The notes below the pieces were generated by a model. It did not search any database, had not been told where the DNA came from, and saw only the letters and a program-made list of their open reading frames with translations. A DNA stretch of 64,000 nucleotides from a virus. Its lineage: Duplodnaviria > Caudoviricetes. Shown one piece after another: positions 2,841 to 45,191 of the stretch. The stretch lies in IMG/VR virus record IMGVR_UViG_3300046318_000318. The stretch is one strand, 5' to 3'. A program made the position numbers and the translations under genes. The number at the start of each line of letters is the position of its first letter. Positions within the stretch are counted from its first letter, which is position 1.

Positions 2841-3185
2841 CATAACTACCTCACTCTAGCTTTAACTAAGTTCGCTAAACTTATTGATCTTGCTTAAGGA
2901 TCCTGATACTTTCATATCAGATTAGACTATATCTTCATCTTTCGATGCTCTTCGTTTCCACTCGCTTGAGTGTACTCCCATGTGGGATAGTCGTTGACCA
3001 CACTCCATGTAAGTATATATGTCTATACTTAGTTAGGAGCTTCGGTGCGGATTGCCCAATCCTTGTATCTTTTACCATACCCAGATAGTTACTCTGGCCA
3101 CTGCATATATTTCTATCGCAGTTTGGTGCACAAGGCTCTAAGGAGTTTCCCGCAATTAGAAGAGTTTAAACGACGGCAACACTCT
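2841..3185 (-). ncRNA. group I intron 2 (ORF-less, 345 nt) in the RNAP gene
   Basis: P AATTGCGGGAAA, Q AATCCGCA, R GTCAACGACTA, S AAGATATAGTC; P1 GACGGU/GCCGUC with U.G at the splice site; P10 AGAGUGUU/GACGCUCU; ends in G. Confidence 0.92.
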
Positions 3186-3206
3186 ACCGTCAAAATCAGC
3201 ATTTGG
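3186..3206 (-). CDS. nvRNAP beta-prime subunit, 21-nt micro-exon 2 (PNADFDG)
   Basis: CCA AAT GCT GAT TTT GAC GGT between two intron cores; restores HILTVRAPNADFDGD, same spacing as bacterial HPLVCAAYNADFDGD. Confidence 0.9.
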
Positions 3207-5197
3207 CTTATTGTCCAGTAAAGTCGCTCAGCTTCACAGCTTACCCTCTTTACCCGGTGCGCTTACACACCCACCTGTACTTTCATACAGGAACAGATCA
3301 TATCTTCATCCTTATTAAAGGATGCTCTCCGCTTCTTCCCTGCTTAGGGCTTTACTCGGTCGCAACTCCGATGATCGTTGAACTTTACGCATGGTTGATA
3401 AGAATCAACTTTAGCGTCTTAGCTGCTGATTACCCAATTCTTATATTTTTCAAACTATCACGCTCATCGTTTCCGATCACGTTGTAGTATATAAGACTCT
3501 AAAGGACTTCCCAGCAATTCAAAGAGATAACTTAGTCAATTACTCAACTAAGTGCCTTATCTCATCATTATTAAAATACAATGTCAATCGCCACACACCG
3601 CCTATCAATGCTTTTCTTCTAGCTATTGTAGGGATATATTGTCTAGCATACCCAAATTGCTGACTAATATCTATAGGACTTGTTATAATCCTAGTTTCGC
3701 CAGTTTCAACGTTTTCGATAAAATATCCGTTACCCCTAAAAGATCTTTTATCGAGACATAATTGTTTAAAGTACCTCAGCTCCTTATCGGTAAGATCTTT
3801 AAACTGTCCGTTGAAACTAAATTGCCAACCTTTAATCGGAATGTTCTTTAATCTTTTATTTTTAATAGATAGTTGAACACCCCATGAAACACCAGTTATT
3901 TTCTCACAAGCTGCCAGCGATTCAAATTTACGTTCTTTGCGTGTGAATATATTTCTAGCAGTAACTGGTATTTTTATTTGTAAATCTTCTAAGGATGGTT
4001 TTTCCTGAGGCCATGGTCTTGCATCTAATTTTCGTTTGAAACATAATCCGTCTGAATAGATTTTAATATCGGAAGATCTAAGTCTGACGGACACGGTTAG
4101 TTCAGAATATCCAAGTTTCAGAGAGCAATCCCTAGCACTTTTATATTCAGTCACCTCATCCGTGATTATGTTTTTAACAAGTATTGCTGAACCATACCTG
4201 AATTGATCGTACTCATTTTCTAAATTTTCATAATTTTTCCATTCTTTTAATTCAGATAGCCATTGAAACTGCATGTAATTTTCCCAAAGTTTACAACCGG
4301 GTTTTGTTTTTAACCGATGGTAAAGTAAATCATTACTCAAGCCTAATGCAATTGCGCATTGCGTCGGGTTATCATAAATAGTGATTTCATTGGTTTTAAC
4401 ATTTCTAGTTATGACGTCTATGGTATACTTTTTCTCATTTTCAAGAATTCTATTTACTTTTTCATCAGATCTATCACAATTCGAATAAATGACATTTCCT
4501 CTAGGTGTCACCCATTCTAAATTATCTAAGGTGTCAAAGCCAGGTATCTCATTTTTATGATTTACGTACAGCGATTCAACGTTTCTAGGATAATCTAGCC
4601 ATGCTAAGCACATAGCTCTGTGTCTGAAAAATTTGTAAGATGTATTCTCATTAAGGGAAACATCAGGAATACCTGAATAGGAATGGTAACCATCTCTATC
4701 ACAAAAAGCTTTTTTATCCACACCAGTTATCAAATTTCTAACTTTTCCTTCCTTTGTTATACCATATCTTGTAAAACCAGGAATATAAGCATGATCTTTG
4801 TGTACTGGATGTGATAAACCAACTGGAAATTTCCAAATCAAGTTGCTAGGATGAGAGTTATTAAAATCACCGTCCTCGAACATCAAGTGTAATAAATGCA
4901 CTTGACTTTCATGAACGTGAACGGGCTTAAAAGCCGAAGCTATGATAAACTCTATTGGATATAGACCAGGACCTCTTATCCAATCTAAGAAAATCAAAGT
5001 GCTTCCTGTTTCAGTTGAGATACACTCAATCTGAATGTTCTCTCGCGATATGACATCACCTTCTGAGTTAACAGAATAACGACCGTCAGACCAGGGTAGC
5101 GAAAGATAGTTTTGGGTTTGTAAATATTTACTAAGCATATATCCTTTCTATATAGAAAGGTATGCTAAACGGCGATTGACAATAATGATAAGAATTA
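3207..5197 (-). mobile_element. group I intron 1 (1991 nt) carrying an HNH homing endonuclease
   Basis: After the ORF: P AATTGCTGGGAA, Q AATCAGCAG, R GTTCAACGATCA, S AAGATATGATC (P7 GAUCA/UGAUC); exon ends in U (GCT); intron ends in G. Confidence 0.9.
3540..5138 (-). CDS. intron-encoded HNH homing endonuclease with C-terminal DNA-binding repeats
   Basis: VNHKNEIPGFDTLDNLEWVT HNH motif, degenerate first copy DGDFNNSHPSNLIW, repeats such as YKSARDCSLKLG and FESLAACEKITG. Confidence 0.88.
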   Translation of the reverse strand: MLSKYLQTQNYLSLPWSDGRYSVNSEGDVISRENIQIECISTETGSTLIFLDWIRGPGLYPIEFIIASAFKPVHVHESQVHLLHLMFEDGDFNNSHPSNLIWKFPVGLSHPVHKDHAYIPGFTRYGITKEGKVRNLITGVDKKAFCDRDGYHSYSGIPDVSLNENTSYKFFRHRAMCLAWLDYPRNVESLYVNHKNEIPGFDTLDNLEWVTPRGNVIYSNCDRSDEKVNRILENEKKYTIDVITRNVKTNEITIYDNPTQCAIALGLSNDLLYHRLKTKPGCKLWENYMQFQWLSELKEWKNYENLENEYDQFRYGSAILVKNIITDEVTEYKSARDCSLKLGYSELTVSVRLRSSDIKIYSDGLCFKRKLDARPWPQEKPSLEDLQIKIPVTARNIFTRKERKFESLAACEKITGVSWGVQLSIKNKRLKNIPIKGWQFSFNGQFKDLTDKELRYFKQLCLDKRSFRGNGYFIENVETGETRIITSPIDISQQFGYARQYIPTIARRKALIGGVWRLTLYFNNDEIRHLVE

Positions 5198-6439
5198 AGC
5201 GCGCACTGTTAAAATGTGCATTCCAATAGTGAGGTCATTTGGGTTCTTTTTGAACTTAGTAATCTTCACTCGTTGAGCCGACCCCTGCAAAAGGCTCGGA
5301 TTTCTTTGGAGACATACATACAAACCTTTATCAGGCGCTTCGTCTATCAGCTCCTGCATAAACCTTTCTAACAAGGGGTGGTGTTTGTTAGTATGTTTGT
5401 ATAGGAAACCAATAGAGTCATTCAGACCCATGCCGTAACGCCGCAGCTTATTCAACATGTGGATACGGTAAGCTGTGGTGGCCATACACCAAGGAGCTTC
5501 TATTTCATCATACTCTTTACCCGCTGTAATAGAGATGATAACTGCTCGGAATGAGAAGTTGGTTCTGGCTCCGAACATGTGTTTCCTGAAGTGACCGTGC
5601 TTATGAGCCATCAACAACAGGGTGTCGTTGTAGAAATCACAAAGCATGATCAAGGACTTAACTGTTCGGTTTTGCTTGGTCTTACTTGTCTGATCGTAAA
5701 AGTCTCTGTCAATAGACACCATCGTGTTGACAGCATTCACAGCCTTCATAATGGAAGGATCTGTGTATGTGCCTAGCGGTTGTGTATCAAAGATCAGGAC
5801 TATCTTGTTCGGCAAAGGCAGATACTCACTGAAAATTATCTTACGATAGTCTTTTAGCAAGGATTGAAGATAGTCTATCCTCTCACTCTTAAGCTCGAAC
5901 TTCTGAGTCTTAGGTGCAAACTCAGTCATGGAGAAGAGAGTATCCATGATGTAATCGAAATTAGTCACAAAGTAATTGTAACCGCGCTCGATATTGCACG
6001 TCATCAGTTTGGTCAGCACTTTGTCAGGTGTTTTAGCTGCTGTCGTATAGCTTGTGTTACAAAGCCATTCGATCACAGAGAACCCTGATTTGGTAAACCT
6101 CTTGATGAGCATCATGAAAACCACAGGAGAAATAAGCTTCTCTACCCCTACTGGTTGTTTGAGCCAGATGACTGGTTCGATATCTGACACAACTGAAGCT
6201 TTAACTTCAGTGTGACAGACTGGACAGATAGTACTCTTAGAATATTCACCTTTGGTATGTCCACATTGACAACTGGGAATCAGACTGATCTGATCACTAG
6301 AGAGATGTGTGGTAAGTTTCTCTTTGACAGCCTCACGTTCTTCAAGCGTAGAACACGCCATGTGGTTGATGAGGGTGGGGGTATGACGTAATGTATAAAA
6401 CATCTCGTCGTAGTTAACCAGTTCTTGGATAACAGGCAT
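5198..6439 (-). CDS. non-virion RNA polymerase beta-prime N-terminal subunit (phiKZ gp55-like), exon 1; spliced product 476 aa
   Basis: Zn finger CQCG...CPVC, FGARTNFSFRAVI, LQRNPSL, RVKITKFK; lies next to chimallin as in phiKZ. Confidence 0.9.
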
Positions 6440-6583: not shown

Positions 6584-8452
6584 TCAGTAGCGGTAACCAC
6601 CCATGTTGATGTAGTTCTGCATATGCTGAGGAGCCATGCCGAAACCCATGAACGATTGAGTAGGTGCCAGCAGACCAGCGTTGGCGAAACTTGCAACACC
6701 GCGTTGGTTGTTGAAGTCTGCACCAGACATTGGGCTGTTGATACGCACCATCAGGTTGCAAGCCTGAATACCCTTACGCAGAGCGTCCAGGAACGTAGCG
6801 CTGAAGGTCACTCGTTGAGCATAGCCTGTAAACACAGCGGACTCATTGGACATGCTGGAGATCATACGCTTGCGATCGGAGAGACGCTCTGCCAACGAGA
6901 TGTTGGTGTTCAGGTACGTTTCGGTGAACTGACGCAATGCATGCACATTGTTGGCACCAAGGATGTTGGCAGCTGCCAAGTAGTCGATGTCACGGATGTC
7001 ACGCTGAGCACCGTTGCGATCGGTGTAGTAACCCAGATGGACACGGTTACCCACATCCACGAACATCTGTGCGTTGTTCGGGAAATAGCGACCGAAGTTG
7101 CCAGCAGTCAGTTCCTGAGCAGCTTTGTACATGATGTCGTAAGCACCACCACCGCTTGCAGCAGCTGCACTGTACAGACCAGTATACCATGCCTGAGGAC
7201 CAGCTTCTGGGCAGTCAACAGCAACCATCAGACCAGGCTGAACCAGAGTGTTCAAGAACTGACCCAAGTTCTCAGTCGTAAAACTGGAAGACTTGGTGTC
7301 GAGGATGTTGCTGATACCAGTGGGTTGATTGTCAAAGTTGCCTTCGATGTTCAACGCACCTGCATCACGCAGATCCAAATCCTTAGTCATCTGGGGTCGG
7401 AAGATCTGGTAGTAGTTGTTGTTCAACGCCAGAGCATCCATGTTCGCCACTGCCAACAGCATGTTAGCTGGAGTGTATGCGTGAGCACTGGACAGAGTGG
7501 TGATCACAGCACGAGCTGCAAACTTCTGTGGCAAACGCTGTTGTGCAGGCATGTAGGGGTTGACCATGGGTTCACGAGGAGCCCAGAGCATTTCTACAAA
7601 GCCGCCAACTTCACTGATGCGAGTCTCACGACCGCCGCTGTTCAGACTGCGGTTCTGATTTTGGTTCTGATTGTTCTGAGCTGCAAAGCTCAGTTGGAAG
7701 TCAGAACGAATCAAGTTACCGACATCGTCAGCCACAGGTGTCGAACCAAAGGTCATGTTGATGACCAATTGTTGACCCGTAGGGATCTGCGACAGGTTCA
7801 GATCCTGGAACGTAGGAACCAGTTGAGACAACTCAGTACCGTTAGCCAAGCCAGCGTTCAGTGCCAGCTTATACACAGCAGCTTTGTCCTTCGTATTGAA
7901 AGTAGCTGGTACGACAGTGGCGTCGGTGAACCGCAGTTCGTGCTGAGGAAACGCACGACCAACAGCCGCCTTGGCTTTTGCAATCAAGATGTCGTCGAGA
8001 GCATCGCCCGCTACCCGATACAACTCGATTTGCTTTTGGTGGTGGTACTGCACCACAGGAGTGGGTTTGTCACCAGTTGCTTCGAGGATCAGCACATGGA
8101 ATGCTACCTTGTTAGGTACATCCTTCAGACGCATCGCCACGACCAGGCAAGAGAATGCCAGAGCCGTTTCGTTCTGGTTGTCCAGATCCAGAATGCTGAT
8201 CAGACTGTCAGAACTTGCGTTCTTGTAGATCTCAATAAGTGCGGTCTTGAGGTCGTTGTAAGCCTCAGACCCAATTGAGCGACCGATAGGGGCACCGAAG
8301 ATGTTACCGCCGGAACCGAAGTTCCAAGAAGATTTCACAGGTGCTTGTTGGGTAGCAGTAGCTGCTTGACCAGGAGAACCGGCTTGGGTGAAAGCGGTTG
8401 CTTCAGCAGAGGTTGCAGAAGCGGAAGAGTTGTTACCAGTATTGAGAGCCAT
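6584..8452 (-). CDS. chmA: chimallin, major phage nuclear shell protein (phiKZ gp54-like)
   Basis: 622 aa, low-complexity N-terminus then FGAPIGRSIGSE; host-like optimised codons; syntenic with the nvRNAP subunit. Confidence 0.85.
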   Translation of the reverse strand: MALNTGNNSSASATSAEATAFTQAGSPGQAATATQQAPVKSSWNFGSGGNIFGAPIGRSIGSEAYNDLKTALIEIYKNASSDSLISILDLDNQNETALAFSCLVVAMRLKDVPNKVAFHVLILEATGDKPTPVVQYHHQKQIELYRVAGDALDDILIAKAKAAVGRAFPQHELRFTDATVVPATFNTKDKAAVYKLALNAGLANGTELSQLVPTFQDLNLSQIPTGQQLVINMTFGSTPVADDVGNLIRSDFQLSFAAQNNQNQNQNRSLNSGGRETRISEVGGFVEMLWAPREPMVNPYMPAQQRLPQKFAARAVITTLSSAHAYTPANMLLAVANMDALALNNNYYQIFRPQMTKDLDLRDAGALNIEGNFDNQPTGISNILDTKSSSFTTENLGQFLNTLVQPGLMVAVDCPEAGPQAWYTGLYSAAAASGGGAYDIMYKAAQELTAGNFGRYFPNNAQMFVDVGNRVHLGYYTDRNGAQRDIRDIDYLAAANILGANNVHALRQFTETYLNTNISLAERLSDRKRMISSMSNESAVFTGYAQRVTFSATFLDALRKGIQACNLMVRINSPMSGADFNNQRGVASFANAGLLAPTQSFMGFGMAPQHMQNYINMGGYRY

Positions 8453-19632: not shown

Positions 19633-20244
19633 TCACTGTGTCATTCTCATGTCTGTTAAAATCAGTTTTCTGACTGTGGTTTCCAAGCCAGGGAAAACTG
19701 TCAAAACATTAGACATCAAGTTATTCCTTACCTTATTCCTAAGATTGAAGTCGTTATCTGCATTGGTAGGATCTGTCAGATACTTTAACCTATAGAAGTT
19801 AGCATACTCTATAATAGTCTTCTTAGAAGTAGTTAACAAAGGTCTCTGCACATTACCATTTTGATAAGCCATCACTCTACTTCTACCTTGACAGCTGGTC
19901 ATCAGGTACCATTCAGTAGCATCAGACAGATGATGACCTGTAAGTACAGGCTTATCCATAGATTGAAATATGGTGTTTCTTTTTCTAGACCAAAAGGATT
20001 CTAGAGATGTGGAGTTATCAAACTCAGACAACTTGAAGGTTTTATAAGCTAAACCAAGCTGATTAGCTGTCTCTTTACAGAAAGCCAGTTCAGTCTTACT
20101 AAAGTCTGTGTTATGATCCACAGTAAGTAAAGTTACATTAACTCTCTTCCTTAACAGAAGGTGTAAAAGTACGACCGAATCTATACCGCCTGAAAAAGCA
20201 AGGTAAACATCTTTTTGAAGAGTCTTAAGTACATTGAGTTTCAT
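19633..20244 (-). CDS. tilS: tRNA(Ile)-lysidine synthase, catalytic domain only
   Basis: PP-loop LAFSGGIDSVVL, TGHHLSDATE, RPLL, DPTN...RNKVR; start MKLNV. Confidence 0.85.
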   Translation of the reverse strand: MKLNVLKTLQKDVYLAFSGGIDSVVLLHLLLRKRVNVTLLTVDHNTDFSKTELAFCKETANQLGLAYKTFKLSEFDNSTSLESFWSRKRNTIFQSMDKPVLTGHHLSDATEWYLMTSCQGRSRVMAYQNGNVQRPLLTTSKKTIIEYANFYRLKYLTDPTNADNDFNLRNKVRNNLMSNVLTVFPGLETTVRKLILTDMRMTQ

Positions 20245-20252
20245 GTGTTGAG

Positions 20253-20305
20253 AAAAAAAGAAAAGACACAACTGCTCAGAATCTATAAGACTCTAAGCAG
20301 TTGTG
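20253..20305 (-). terminator. terminator-like hairpin after the tRNA pair
   Basis: CACAACTGCT...AGCAGTTGTG followed by a U-rich run on the minus strand. Confidence 0.6.
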
Positions 20306-20314
20306 CTTTTTTGT

Positions 20315-20626
20315 TGGTAGGCAGGATGAGATTCGAACTCACTATCTTCGGCTTCACATTTGTGTTAGTTTCCTAACTCTGTGGACTATATCACCATCCT
20401 TAACTTAATATTAGGATGTCGGGCGCTTTACTCTGTTATTAAGAAGATTCTACTTCTCAGATAGTCTCTGCACTTTCCTAGGGTATACCCTAAGCTTAGC
20501 TCAGTATTGCCGTCGTCATTATACGTTACGGTTTCACTGAATTCACCCGATTATTCAATACTGATTACTCAGTAAGGTCACCATTGAGATGAGGCCGCCG
20601 CTTATAACCCCTTAAGCTTCCCGCCT
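20315..20626 (-). tRNA. tRNA with CAU anticodon (probably Ile2), interrupted at 36/37; exons 20589-20626 and 20315-20354
   Basis: Acceptor AGGCGGG/CCTGCCT-A-CCA, loop CT-CAT|AA, T arm GTGAG-TTCGAAT-CTCAT; adjacent to tilS. Confidence 0.88.
20355..20588 (-). ncRNA. group I intron (IC3-like, 234 nt) in tRNA-CAU
   Basis: GAATTCAGTGAAACC, AATACTGAGCTAAGC, GTGCAGAGACTA, GATATAGTCC; P1 CAU/GUG; ends in G; layout like the Azoarcus tRNA-Ile intron. Confidence 0.9.
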
Positions 20627-20635
20627 ATTTTACAC

Positions 20636-20939
20636 TGGTCCGCCCGGCAAGAATCGAACTTGCAACTAAAACTTAGCGTCACACTATAGTTTTCACTACC
20701 AGGTTACCCTGTTTGTGCGCTGGACTTTGTCTTGATCATGACCTACTTATGATAGGTTTTAGATCTTTGCCGTCAAGTCTCTACACGTTCTATCCCTTTT
20801 GAAAAAGATAGCTTCGCTCGGCGTTGGCATCAGCATTACCTGTTAAGCGTTCACCGAATTTGACAAAATTCACTGAATACTTTCGACATCCAGTGCTCCT
20901 AATTGAAGGTTCTTGTTATATCCATTTAACTACGGGCAG
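20636..20939 (-). tRNA. tRNA-Arg(UCU) interrupted at 34/35; exons 20906-20939 and 20636-20676
   Basis: CTGCCCG/CGGGCGG-A-CCA, D arm GTTA-AATGGATA-TAAC with A20, loop CTT|CTAA, T arm GCAAG-TTCGATT-CTTGC. Confidence 0.88.
20677..20905 (-). ncRNA. group I intron (IC3-like, 229 nt) in tRNA-Arg
   Basis: AAATTCGGTGAA, AACGCCGAGC, GTGTAGAGACTT, GACAAAGTCC (P7 GACUU/AAGUC); short P1 with U.G; ends in G. Confidence 0.9.
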
Positions 20940-20944
20940 ATTAT

Positions 20945-21830
20945 CTTTAATAACACTTTATTCAAATGTTATTAAAGATACCCAATATCACTATTGGGTC
21001 TTACCACTTATTACTCACGTAAGACAAAGCTCACATTTTCACATTAGATTCTATATTCTTTTACTCTTATAGACTTTACAGTCAGAGATATTCCTTTAAG
21101 AATCTTACGTGGGTTTAAAGTCTTTCTACCATATCGTGTTATTAGTACCAGGGGCTGACTATGCAATCTTAGGCTTTTCCTGGATTCAGTCATGCTACAA
21201 CTAATAACGCATCAGAGTAATTACTTCTGATATTTGACTTAGGTAATCTCCATTAGACTTATACCTTCTGTATTTAATCCGACCAGACTGCCTTTCGCAT
21301 GTATCTGGTTTTACTGTTTCCAGTAGTGAGCTAAACTCACATTTCGGTCAGATTGGTCCCAGAGTAACTCTGGACTTTGGAGATGGGCACCCACTCGTTA
21401 AAGTGTTTTACCGTCTTTCGATAACTTTTACGCTCATTGACATAGCATGTGGTTTAAACATCGCTTGTCTTGATGGACTACAAGTTATTTTTTCGGTGGC
21501 GTCTTGTTTATCTGTCTGCTTAATCGTTGTCGCTATTCCAAGGGCGAGTCCACCCATCCTGGCGAATGAGCTTCAATCTCTCACGACTATCCTATAAACT
21601 TTTAAGCTTTTCCATTATTTCAGACCTTACAGCTAACGTCTATATCAGGCGATTAATATAGACATATGCGTATCTGTTGTCATGGCGACAGATGTTCTCG
21701 ATGATTGTTCAAGAACATCGATATTCCTCACATGAGTACATTACTGAAACTCATGCAACCTTTTACAAGGACGATATACTTAGGAACGCTAAGTATAATT
21801 AACTGTCTTTCACTCTCGTGTGGAGCTATT
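20945..21830 (-). ncRNA. candidate large structured ncRNA (~0.9 kb) upstream of the tRNAs
   Basis: No credible ORF; dense perfect hairpins and multi-branch helices, several GNRA loops. Confidence 0.5.
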
Positions 21831-21876
21831 GAACTTAAAGCCACCAGTATCAAGACTAATCCTGGTTTCAATGATA

Positions 21877-22074
21877 TTATTTATATACCGCGCAAGGCGG
21901 TCGAGGTTTTTCTGGTGGGGATTTGATAGACCCTGTCGTTGCAGCAACACGTTTAGCCCTAGCAGACTGCAATCGTTTAAGGCTGTTGTCTATCTCATCC
22001 AGTTTGAACAACGACACAAGGTCGCACGCTCTCCAGAAATAACCCCATGAGAAATCATTCCACATGGCGATCAC
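21877..22074 (-). CDS. hypothetical protein
   Basis: 65-aa ORF in operon orientation. Confidence 0.45.
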   Translation of the reverse strand: MIAMWNDFSWGYFWRACDLVSLFKLDEIDNSLKRLQSARAKRVAATTGSIKSPPEKPRPPCAVYK

Positions 22075-22078
22075 TTTC

Positions 22079-23954: not shown

Positions 23955-24157
23955 TTTGTTACCTTAGATAGTTGATTGAGTTTGATTCGGTAATAATTTA
24001 AAGATACTGACCTGGCTCTTAGCTGAGTCAATCTTTTTTCCTGTTCAGGTGTATATTCTTTACCAACCTTTGAATCATGTACTTTATAAAAGAGTTTGTT
24101 GATCTTTTCTAAGAGTCGAGTGGATTGATCCCATTTATGGACATTTGTCATGTTCAC
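23951..24157 (-). CDS. hypothetical protein
   Basis: 68 aa, coupled. Confidence 0.6.
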   Translation of the reverse strand: MNMTNVHKWDQSTRLLEKINKLFYKVHDSKVGKEYTPEQEKRLTQLRARSVSLNYYRIKLNQLSKVTK

Positions 24158-24906
24158 TTTATCTTTCTGATATGTTTACAACCTAGACAGTGATTAGGTA
24201 CTATTTTGTCTTTAAAGCTTAACAAAGCAGCTTCTCTAGAAAACCCCTGTGGTTCTTTTATATAGCAACAAGGTAATTCAACGCCATCTATTGTATAAAA
24301 CGGATTGTTTTTATTTCCGTTTAGAAAATCACAAGTTATGGCTTTGGCTTTGTCATCCGGGACTTTAAATATAATTTTCTTATTTTCGGGATATACAGAT
24401 ACATAATCAGACTTAACTGACAGTTGATTAATATTGTAAAAAATATTATTTTCTTTTAACCAGAGTAAAGTGCTTTTTAAGTCTTGACCCACATTGGTTA
24501 TTTGCACATCCACAACAGTCTGCTTATGTGATTTTAACAAAAGTATATTTTGCATCACCTTTTTAACATTATGCCTGCCTATTGACTTACATGTTTCTTC
24601 GTCAATGCTGTCTAATGAAATAGATATTCTTTTAAAATATTTAATAATTTTCTCTATATCAACAACAGATCCGTTAATTATGGAATAAGGTATATGACCT
24701 CTAGAATAAACATAATCAACTCCTTCCCACCAGTATTTCCATAAGGTTGGTTCGCCTTCACCCTGTAGTTTAATAACAGACGTGTCTTTAAGCTTATCTA
24801 TAATTGTGGTAAAGGTATCCCAGGACATATCTTTTTGCTCCATGGTCCTGCCTGTGCAATACCAGCAATTATAATTACAACGCGTGGTTACTTCTATTTG
24901 TATCAT
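24154..24906 (-). CDS. radical SAM protein with C-terminal Cys cluster (twitch/SPASM-like)
   Basis: CNYNCWYC, GEGEPTL, SISLDS, C-terminal C...CC...CLGC. Confidence 0.85.
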   Translation of the reverse strand: MIQIEVTTRCNYNCWYCTGRTMEQKDMSWDTFTTIIDKLKDTSVIKLQGEGEPTLWKYWWEGVDYVYSRGHIPYSIINGSVVDIEKIIKYFKRISISLDSIDEETCKSIGRHNVKKVMQNILLLKSHKQTVVDVQITNVGQDLKSTLLWLKENNIFYNINQLSVKSDYVSVYPENKKIIFKVPDDKAKAITCDFLNGNKNNPFYTIDGVELPCCYIKEPQGFSREAALLSFKDKIVPNHCLGCKHIRKIK

Positions 24907-33425: not shown

Positions 33426-33434
33426 GTACATGGG

Positions 33435-33743
33435 TGGCCCGCTCCGGAATCGAACCGGAACGCCCCTTACGAAAGCGTCAGATTTTAAGTCTGATCTCTA
33501 CCACTGCAGTTTTCACTGCCACTTTAGTGTGTTTGTGGTCTGGACTATCCCTTCAACTACATCCTAAATGTTTAGCTGGGCGATTATAGTCTCTGCACGT
33601 CTTTCTATATTTCTATAGAAATTTCGCTCAGGATTGGCATCAGCAATTAACTGTTAAGCTTTCCCTGAATTTACGCCATTTTACTACATTATTTCTAATG
33701 TAGGACACATCAAATATATGTCTACCTATTTCATCAGCGGGCC
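33435..33743 (-). tRNA. tRNA-Leu(UAA) interrupted in the D arm at 25/26; exons 33718-33743 and 33435-33495; CCA not encoded
   Basis: GGCCCGC/GCGGGCC-A, GGTAGACAT|A, TCAGA-CTTAAAA-TCTGA, long variable arm, TCCGG-TTCGATT-CCGGA. Confidence 0.9.
33496..33717 (-). ncRNA. group I intron (IC3-like, 222 nt) in the tRNA-Leu D arm
   Basis: AAATTCAGGGAAA, AATCCTGAGC, GTGCAGAGACTA, GGATAGTCC; P1 GACAU/GUGUC, P10 AUCAGA/UUUGAU; ends in G. Confidence 0.92.
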
Positions 33744-33754
33744 ACCCATGTACT

Positions 33755-43646: not shown

Positions 43647-45191
43647 TTACATGTTCAAAGCGTAACCGACACAATACAGATAAGGCGTGACTCCATCAAA
43701 GGACTCCACCATAAAGCTGAATGTATCGATTTTGTTGTTGATCAAAGTAAGAGCTGGAGCTGCACCATCAGGGAACTTCACGTTAGCTGGGAATACAAGA
43801 TCACCACCTTTGTGAATAATAACCACTTTGTAGTCAAAACCTATCCGTGTGAGATCTAAGTTCTGAATATTGAAGTTGGTTACGTTAGAGATTAACTCTA
43901 TACGGATAACCTGATGAGTATCTAAATCCCAAGAAACAGTACCCGAAGCTGGCTGTACTTTATTGGTAGTAGAGACTTTCTGTGGTTTGGTGAAGTTATT
44001 CTCTGCGGAAGGAGACATGTAGTCTGTACCAGCAGCAGCTAAAGTCAATATGTTGTTGGTAGTCTTTAACAGACCTGTTCCGGCAACGTTGATACCACCA
44101 CCCACACCGCCACCTGTGCTTATTACACTGATGGCGTCTGATAAAGCCACCATATCGGTTATGATACCGTTACCAGTAATACCTGGGGTGATGCCGTTAA
44201 CTATGTCTGATAAAGCAGTTAAGCTTGTGATGTCAGCTTTTAAAACATTTATACCATTGACTGTGTCAGTCAATGCATCTAAGGCAACCTGACTGGCTTT
44301 ACTCAGAGAAAGAGCATTTACCGTATCACTTAAGACATCAAGATCTACCTGCGTAGCTTTAAGCTGATTAATTTGATTAACCAAATCACTCAATGCATCC
44401 AAATCTACTTGACTTGCTTTACCAGCTATCAATACAGAATGCGATTGAATAAGGGTAGTCAGTGCGGTGATTTCAGCATTTATAGCTGTAAGGTCTACAG
44501 TACCGCCACCGCCACCACCGCCCCCAGCTTGTAAGTTTGTTACTGCTGTTTGCAGATTGGTAATGATAGTAGACAAACCAGAAGTGTCAGCAATAGCGTG
44601 TCCATGACCAATAGCTGATTTACCTGCTAAACTGGTTTGGATAGAACCTAAACTATCATTCAGTCCCGATATGCTAGACATGTCATGAACATGACTAACA
44701 GCTGCTTTACCAGCCAATGCTGGTGATAATCCAGCTATAGTAGTCATGTCGTGTACATGACCAGTTTCAGCTTTCATAGACAAAGTCTGTGCTAAGAGAC
44801 TGATATCATCTATAGCGTGCGTATGGCCTAAAGCAGCCTTACCAGCCAACGACAGATCAAGACCACTTATCTCAGAGCTAACGTGCGTATGTCCAAAATT
44901 AGACTTGCCAGCCAGAGCCGTCATCAAACCTGAGATATCATCTGTAGCTAGGGTATGTGTGTGATTTGCATCAGCTTTACTTAGCAAAGCAGTCAGCACA
45001 GCAGTTGATACTGGCTTATCGGCATCACTTGTGTTGCTGACATTACCCAGACCCACATCTTGTTTAGTGAGTATAGATTTAAAAGTATTCAGAGTCATTC
45101 GGTAATTCTGATTACCAAATATCAAAGACACTTGTTCCAGACCTGTGGCTGTGGTTAACAGCGAAAAGTCACTTATCTTTCTATTAGCCAT
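43647..45191 (-). CDS. tail fibre with HxH repeats and C-terminal beta domain
   Basis: MANRKISDF N-domain, HxH repeats, coiled-coil repeats, Gly tracts. Confidence 0.8.
   Translation of the reverse strand: MANRKISDFSLLTTATGLEQVSLIFGNQNYRMTLNTFKSILTKQDVGLGNVSNTSDADKPVSTAVLTALLSKADANHTHTLATDDISGLMTALAGKSNFGHTHVSSEISGLDLSLAGKAALGHTHAIDDISLLAQTLSMKAETGHVHDMTTIAGLSPALAGKAAVSHVHDMSSISGLNDSLGSIQTSLAGKSAIGHGHAIADTSGLSTIITNLQTAVTNLQAGGGGGGGGTVDLTAINAEITALTTLIQSHSVLIAGKASQVDLDALSDLVNQINQLKATQVDLDVLSDTVNALSLSKASQVALDALTDTVNGINVLKADITSLTALSDIVNGITPGITGNGIITDMVALSDAISVISTGGGVGGGINVAGTGLLKTTNNILTLAAAGTDYMSPSAENNFTKPQKVSTTNKVQPASGTVSWDLDTHQVIRIELISNVTNFNIQNLDLTRIGFDYKVVIIHKGGDLVFPANVKFPDGAAPALTLINNKIDTFSFMVESFDGVTPYLYCVGYALNM

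Follow-up and report, generated by a model that had tools for sequence, protein, structure and literature searches.

A tRNA gene with the anticodon CAU, split by a group I intron, stands beside a gene for a TilS protein reduced to its catalytic domain in a 64-kb stretch of phage DNA (about 40% G+C), which was analysed whole and is called the window below. The locus raises the question of whether a phage supplies both the tRNA that reads AUA and the enzyme that matures it, and whether the intron has a regulatory part in this. We conclude that the locus is probably a phage-encoded module for AUA decoding, composed of a tRNA-Ile2 and a mini-TilS, and assign this reading a probability of about three-quarters. 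The block consists of the following features, all on the minus strand.

20626-20315, minus strand: whole tRNA(CAU) gene with encoded CCA, read from the sequence
20589..20626, minus strand: 5′ exon of the tRNA, nucleotides 1-36, ending in CUCAU; from sequence reading and a cloverleaf common to viral loci L001, L006, L008 and L017
20355..20588, minus strand: group I intron of 234 nt, lacking an ORF, between tRNA nucleotides 36 and 37 (RF00028, 87.7 bits, E 5e-21)
20315..20354, minus strand: 3′ exon of the tRNA, nucleotides 37-76, beginning with AA and ending in ACCA, from sequence reading
20253..20306, minus strand: terminator-like hairpin of 19 pairs followed by a U-rich tract, CUUUUCUUUUUUU (fold -31.2 kcal/mol, z -7.9)
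19633..20244, minus strand: mini-TilS gene, stop included, encoding 203 aa with the PP-loop catalytic domain only (TIGR02432, PF01171 and fold)

Judged by the hallmark proteins that the window encodes, its source is a nucleus-forming jumbo phage. Two of these genes are located as follows.

6584-8452: chimallin, the nuclear-shell protein (phrog_4795)
5195-6439: split RNA polymerase beta gene, beyond an HNH-matching ORF at 3540-5138

A family B DNA polymerase and a large terminase complete the hallmarks found in the window, and the shell protein is only 26-34% identical to its nearest cultured relatives. Among 62 window ORFs, ATA accounts for 36% of the Ile codons (22.8 per 1000 codons) and AGA for 44% of the Arg codons. 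Immediately downstream of the HNH-matching ORF are two further group I introns (2903-3195 and 3274-3584, minus strand; 83.7 and 68.7 bits). Long ORF-poor stretches lie on either side of the tRNA-tilS block (19066-19632 and 20943-22078); no nucleotide match to either occurs among 160 related loci, and L001 lacks both the first stretch and the 283-aa ORF that lies beyond it. A radical SAM protein of 250 aa is encoded a few kb away from the tRNA block (24154-24906, minus strand). ARAGORN also called a 93-nt tRNA-Met at 44628-44720 (minus strand); the call falls within a 514-aa tail-fibre-like ORF (43647-45191), has no Rfam match and is probably a false positive.

Joining the two exons of the tRNA(CAU) gene gives the cloverleaf AGGCGGG/AA/GCUU-AAGGGGUUAU-AAGC/G/GCGGC-CUCAUAA-GCCGA/AGAUA/GUGAG-UUCGAAU-CUCAU/CCUGCCU/ACCA. 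The 5′ exon provides the acceptor strand AGGCGGG, A8 and A9, the D arm GCUU/AAGC, the anticodon stem strand GCGGC and the loop portion CU-CAU, and the 3′ exon provides AA, GCCGA, the variable loop AGAUA, the T arm GUGAG-UUCGAAU-CUCAU, the acceptor strand CCUGCCU and ACCA. The restored anticodon loop, CUCAUAA, is the same as in the intron-free orthologues. The A at position 8 is unusual, and this, with the G.A pair at 27:43, is the likely cause of the failure of ARAGORN to call the gene either split or spliced; the Rfam tRNA model gives the intron-free L001 orthologue 47.5 bits. Initiator marks are absent, as the sequence-only reading had claimed: A1 and U72 form a pair, position 11:24 holds C-G, and a C-G at 31:39 keeps the anticodon stem from having three G-C pairs.

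The same reading had placed a 234-nt intron of Azoarcus type between nucleotides 36 and 37, and its coordinates proved exact. The Rfam RF00028 match (20615-20362; gathering score 50) spans model positions 1-253 of 253 and is not truncated. RNAfold of the 5′ part gives a P1 of U33-A, C34-G, A35-U, U36.G and c+1-G (fold z -4.05), and the splice sites follow group I rules, with U at -1 in a U36.G wobble within P1 and a terminal G (...AAUGUG). Insertion after anticodon-loop nucleotide 5, the U at -1 and the terminal G together define the Ile2.5Ug class, a classical class of bacterial tRNA introns (bioRxiv 10.1101/2020.01.27.920355). The window intron is a phage member of a known intron class. It shares with the Azoarcus-type introns the site at 36/37, the U at -1, the 3′ G, small size and the lack of an ORF, but it is phage-borne, and the likeness to Azoarcus holds for the insertion site, which is the classical Ile2 site. 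Its subgroup is probably IC3, with which a compact, ORF-less, tRNA-borne intron is consistent. The intron that L062 has at this position is a sister of the window intron and differs from it by compensatory changes in P2, P3, P4, P6, P8 and the 3′ hairpin, and so many paired changes indicate that both introns have been kept as working ribozymes. The precursor should self-splice.

Other tRNA genes in the window are also split. Directly upstream of tRNA(CAU) is a tRNA-Arg(UCU) gene (20636-20939, minus strand) with a 229-nt intron (20677-20905) after U34. Its identity follows from group I rules, by which the exon ends in U and the intron in G; the intron scores 49.1 bits, just below the Rfam gathering score of 50, and ARAGORN miscalls the gene as Ser(GCU). 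A long-arm tRNA-Leu(UAA) gene (33431-33744, minus strand) has its entire anticodon stem-loop in the 3′ exon, and the intron (RF00028, 59.7 bits), with a P1 in which exon GACAU pairs with intron GUGUC, appears to lie between tRNA nucleotides 25 and 26, outside the anticodon loop. The proposed junction fits the intron-free relatives L017:3633-3722 and L008:3693-3782, and the site is unlike those in one catalogue of tRNA introns, which are all in the anticodon loop. Because group I rules play no part in its intron option, ARAGORN puts the splice sites of the Arg and Leu genes in the wrong place. In L019 (225-530), a CAU tRNA upstream of a mini-tilS has an apparent intron that follows U33, at the site named 'fMet.2Ug', although the 1:72 pair of this tRNA is unlike that of an initiator; the intron is below the Rfam gathering score.

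The protein encoded downstream had been described as a TilS of about 200 aa with only the catalytic domain, and the searches agree. It matches TIGR02432 (lysidine_TilS_N) with 103.1 bits, above the NCBIfam cut-off of 93.6, over profile positions 2-188 of 189, and PF01171 with 99 bits. The PP-loop motif SGGxDS is present as SGGIDS at residues 18-23, the ATG start agrees with the homologues, and three ATA codons within the gene fall in Ile/Val alignment columns. Searched against PDB structures, a profile of 35 family members finds the TilS entries 1wy5 (1.9e-30), 1ni5 (3.4e-24) and 3a2k (4.3e-18) before the next PP-loop family (4e-6). These alignments end at about residue 228 of 317 in Aquifex, 212 of 433 in E. 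coli and 221 of 464 in Geobacillus, which is the end of the N domain, so both C-terminal TilS domains are missing from mini-TilS. Pfam matches were to PF01171-type domains only, with neither the tRNA-binding domain CTD1 (PF09179) nor CTD2 (PF11734), the reader of the acceptor stem by which type I is defined, in mini-TilS, and no TilS domain is found in neighbouring ORFs. The reading frame ends in TGA followed by TAG TAG, which leaves no read-through continuation. A TilS extended by read-through or split into a neighbouring ORF was therefore rejected on the immediate stops, the lack of TilS-domain neighbours and the occurrence of the gene in L001, the closest relative, without these neighbours.

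Mini-TilS shares the N-terminal PP-loop ATP-pyrophosphatase domain, its motifs and its fold with bacterial TilS of type II (Aquifex aeolicus, 1WY5/2E21/2E89) and type I (E. coli 1NI5, G. kaustophilus 3A2K), but it lacks both CTD1 and CTD2, is about 200 aa long as against about 317 aa for type II, and belongs to a separate phage group. The literature recognises type I and type II only, all characterised TilS carry at least one appended domain, and deleting CTD2 alone sharply lowers activity (PMC11947777). A TilS that consists of the catalytic domain alone may therefore have low activity or depend on a partner. One could go further and regard the one-domain protein as no working lysidine synthetase but as a relic, or as a PP-loop enzyme with another amine or target, as both tRNA-binding domains deemed universal in TilS (PMC11947777) are missing and the AlphaFold2 model (pLDDT 94.8) matches the thiolases NcsA and TtuA in Foldseek at a TM of about 0.75. 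We consider this very unlikely. The best Foldseek matches are the TilS structures 1ni5, 2e21 and 1wy5 (TM 0.78-0.80), and the protein passes the TilS-specific model TIGR02432. Across 35 sequences at 38-94% identity, 24 columns are invariant and include all TilS motifs (SGGxDS, HHxxD, RP, DxxN and RNxxR); none is a Cys that could serve Fe-S or thiolation chemistry. The proteins form a large, coherent clade whose gene is linked to CAU tRNAs. A thiolase identity was likewise rejected on the lack of a conserved Cys and on a sequence profile that favours TilS by about 24 orders of magnitude.

Similar short proteins are widespread. The closest homologues (P0002-P0011) are 94-70% identical, and in metagenomes the proteins of 200-220 aa at 40-94% identity make up more than 100 clusters, of which several lie on contigs of 140-265 kb. 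An alignment-based scan of viral contigs matched 188 stretches in IMG/VR; a single-protein query scan of viral contigs gave no matches, and in the metagenome scan the best locus among the matches listed was 58% identical. Matches above 357 aa in length are the ordinary TilS of bacteria with three domains, and their identity is no more than 32%. In a maximum-likelihood tree of the N domain, all 29 short sequences, including that of PA5oct, fall on one side of a 100/100 branch; the tree is unrooted, its bacterial sample is small and was picked by similarity to the query, and five of the short sequences come from viral loci. That the short form is a family of phage proteins separate from the sampled bacterial TilS, and not a fragment, is well supported by these comparisons.

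Among 50,697 deposited phage genomes, 16 have a match, mostly PA5oct-like Pseudomonas phages together with two uncultured phages of 630-640 kb. The Pseudomonas jumbo phages MIJ3 and PA5oct encode a TilS from this short family (203 aa, 29.5% identity), but they form no nucleus and carry no tRNA beside tilS. The gene was reported in MIJ3 as a putative TilS of unknown role, in a paper that comments neither on its single domain nor on a tRNA partner (PMC6892783). The one-domain TilS is a new architectural variant of a known enzyme whose gene was already annotated in MIJ3 and PA5oct.

The evidence that the tRNA and the enzyme belong together is comparative. The 80 viral loci contain 31 tRNAs that lie no more than 300 nt from a mini-tilS gene, and 19 of these have the anticodon CAU, all on the tilS strand; near-duplicates among the loci reduce the independent lineages to perhaps fifteen. 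A tRNA of the window type lies upstream of tilS in L017 (by 38 nt), L006 (173 nt), L008 (302 nt) and L001 (927 nt). These tRNAs share A8 A9, the GCUU...AAGC D arm, the AGAUA variable loop and the encoded CCA, and their stems show compensatory changes at a TilS identity to the window of 38-63%. From lineage to lineage, the tilS-linked tRNAs differ freely in their acceptor and anticodon stems, which fits an enzyme without stem-reading domains. Since the pairing is conserved across many phage lineages, the tRNA(CAU) is most likely the substrate of mini-TilS, as had been proposed from the sequence. The CAU tRNAs of other mini-tilS loci are often non-canonical (L014, L015, L043, L050-L052, L089, L094 and L159), for example in having A8 and in having a long variable arm within a body of 83-91 nt, which suggests relaxed or altered constraints.

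Alternatively, the tRNA could be an elongator tRNA-Met, with mini-TilS acting on host tRNA-Ile2 or on another tRNA encoded elsewhere in the phage genome. Annotation tools name such genes tRNA-Met, and BLAST of the tilS-linked tRNAs against annotated phages returns CAU tRNAs labelled Met by default. The marks for IleRS and TilS in E. coli, which we take to be C4-G69, C5-G68, U12-A23, C29-G41, A37, A38 and A73, are shared in part: C4-G69, U12-A23, A37, A38 and A73 are present, 5:68 is G.U and 29:41 is G-C, leaving the acceptor-stem marks only half present. PA5oct, like many mini-TilS loci, has no tRNA near the gene, and the terminator-like hairpin between the two window genes suggests separate units. 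Against a tRNA-Met stand the strong enrichment of CAU beside mini-tilS, the specific odd tRNA type that accompanies tilS over so wide a range of protein identity, and an intron at the Ile2 class site and not the fMet site (bioRxiv 10.1101/2020.01.27.920355). The further tRNAs of the window, which read AGA, UUA and ACA, match the T4 set, where tRNA-Ile(CAU) also occurs. We consider the tRNA-Met explanation unlikely; the intron site, the linkage to tilS and the genomic context make an Ile2 identity probable.

In T4-like phages, tRNA-Ile(CAU) is found regularly (PMC1524935), likewise as a phage-supplied AUA decoder, alongside Arg(UCU), Leu(UAA) and Thr(UGU) tRNAs. The T4 tRNA depends on host TilS and keeps C4-G69 and C5-G68, whereas the window tRNA has A8, a G5.U68 pair, an intron and an enzyme of its own. 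A vibriophage tRNA(CAU) bears k2C34 (reviewed in PMC13191261).

The sequence-only reading had TilS following the tRNA directly. The gene does start only 70 nt downstream, but this gap between the tRNA CCA and the tilS ATG contains the 19-bp hairpin with its U tract (20306-20253), which argues against simple co-transcription of the two. The upstream tRNAs probably form a unit that largely ends at this hairpin, in which case tilS would need read-through or an unrecognised phage promoter. A second terminator-like hairpin is located at 19131-19094.

Whether the intron is a control device can be judged from its distribution. The earlier reading proposed a two-step gate, in which splicing must precede modification, and as regulation this would mean that the intron delays or conditions the supply of the AUA-decoding tRNA and so times AUA-rich genes, with guanosine, Mg2+ or export from the phage nucleus as possible triggers of splicing. 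The P1 helix does hold C34-U36, so the precursor cannot serve as a TilS substrate, and introns occur in three of the four genuine tRNA genes of the window. The order follows trivially from the P1 pairing, and the 7-nt anticodon loop does not exist until ligation. In a junction-pattern search, other large viral contigs (L062/L170, L163, L164, L165 and L167) proved to have an intron of this lineage in the identical position, with less clear matches in L168 and L169. The split tRNA is 9 nt upstream of mini-tilS in L062/L170 and 8 kb from it in L163, L167 has a mini-tilS elsewhere on its contig, and one complete 316-kb phage genome with an intron-split tRNA(CAU) has no mini-TilS. The introns in L164, L165 and L167 contain an HNH_3 endonuclease ORF. 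In 185,579 bacterial and archaeal genomes, the junction pattern gave only chance matches within coding DNA, and the closest relatives of the intron were found in viral contigs only, some with HNH ORFs.

The orthologous tRNAs next to tilS in L001, L006, L008 and L017 have no intron. Together with the HNH-bearing sister introns, this marks the intron as an optional, mobile element, of which the window copy is an ORF-less form. Group I introns are also common passengers of jumbo phage genes (PMC12880540, PMC12908238). A true regulatory gate is thus most unlikely, and the intron looks like a selfish passenger of a phage-borne homing lineage. The comparative evidence favours, and supports well, an AUA-decoding module; it does not support the gate.

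The AUA-decoding reading builds on the anatomy of the locus, the family and fold of the protein, the conserved synteny and the codon usage, and from these we infer splicing, lysidine formation, charging with isoleucine and the order of events. Guanosine would attack after U36 of the precursor, and the exons would be joined after the terminal G of the intron, giving a 78-nt tRNA with the loop CUCAUAA. Adenylation of C34 and attachment of lysine by mini-TilS, a TilS of which only the ATP-pyrophosphatase domain is left, would follow and yield lysidine, and the lysidine tRNA would be charged by IleRS and read AUA, not AUG.

The discrimination of tRNA-Ile2 from tRNA-Met, which has the same anticodon, is credited to the appended domains of TilS, and how type II enzymes cope with one such domain is still an open question (PMC11947777). 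It is possible, and we offer it tentatively as the less probable case, that the one-domain TilS and its odd tRNA, with A8, encoded CCA and a variable acceptor stem, are a co-evolved, self-sufficient pair. If so, the enzyme would tell its own tRNA from host tRNA-Met without either of the tRNA-reading TilS domains, and it could do this by recognising peculiarities in the core or the anticodon arm of the phage tRNA. Such a pair would be a third, minimal TilS architecture and a natural orthogonal system for assigning AUA.

Minimal substrate recognition could be studied directly in this large natural family, which has no appended domain and usually sits next to a CAU tRNA, and mini-TilS with its tRNA(CAU) is a possible compact orthogonal pair for AUA recoding. 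The tRNA genes of phages are colonised by homing group I introns, and standard tRNA finders then miss such genes. For the phages themselves, the locus suggests that AT-rich jumbo phages can supply a tRNA together with the enzyme for its maturation.
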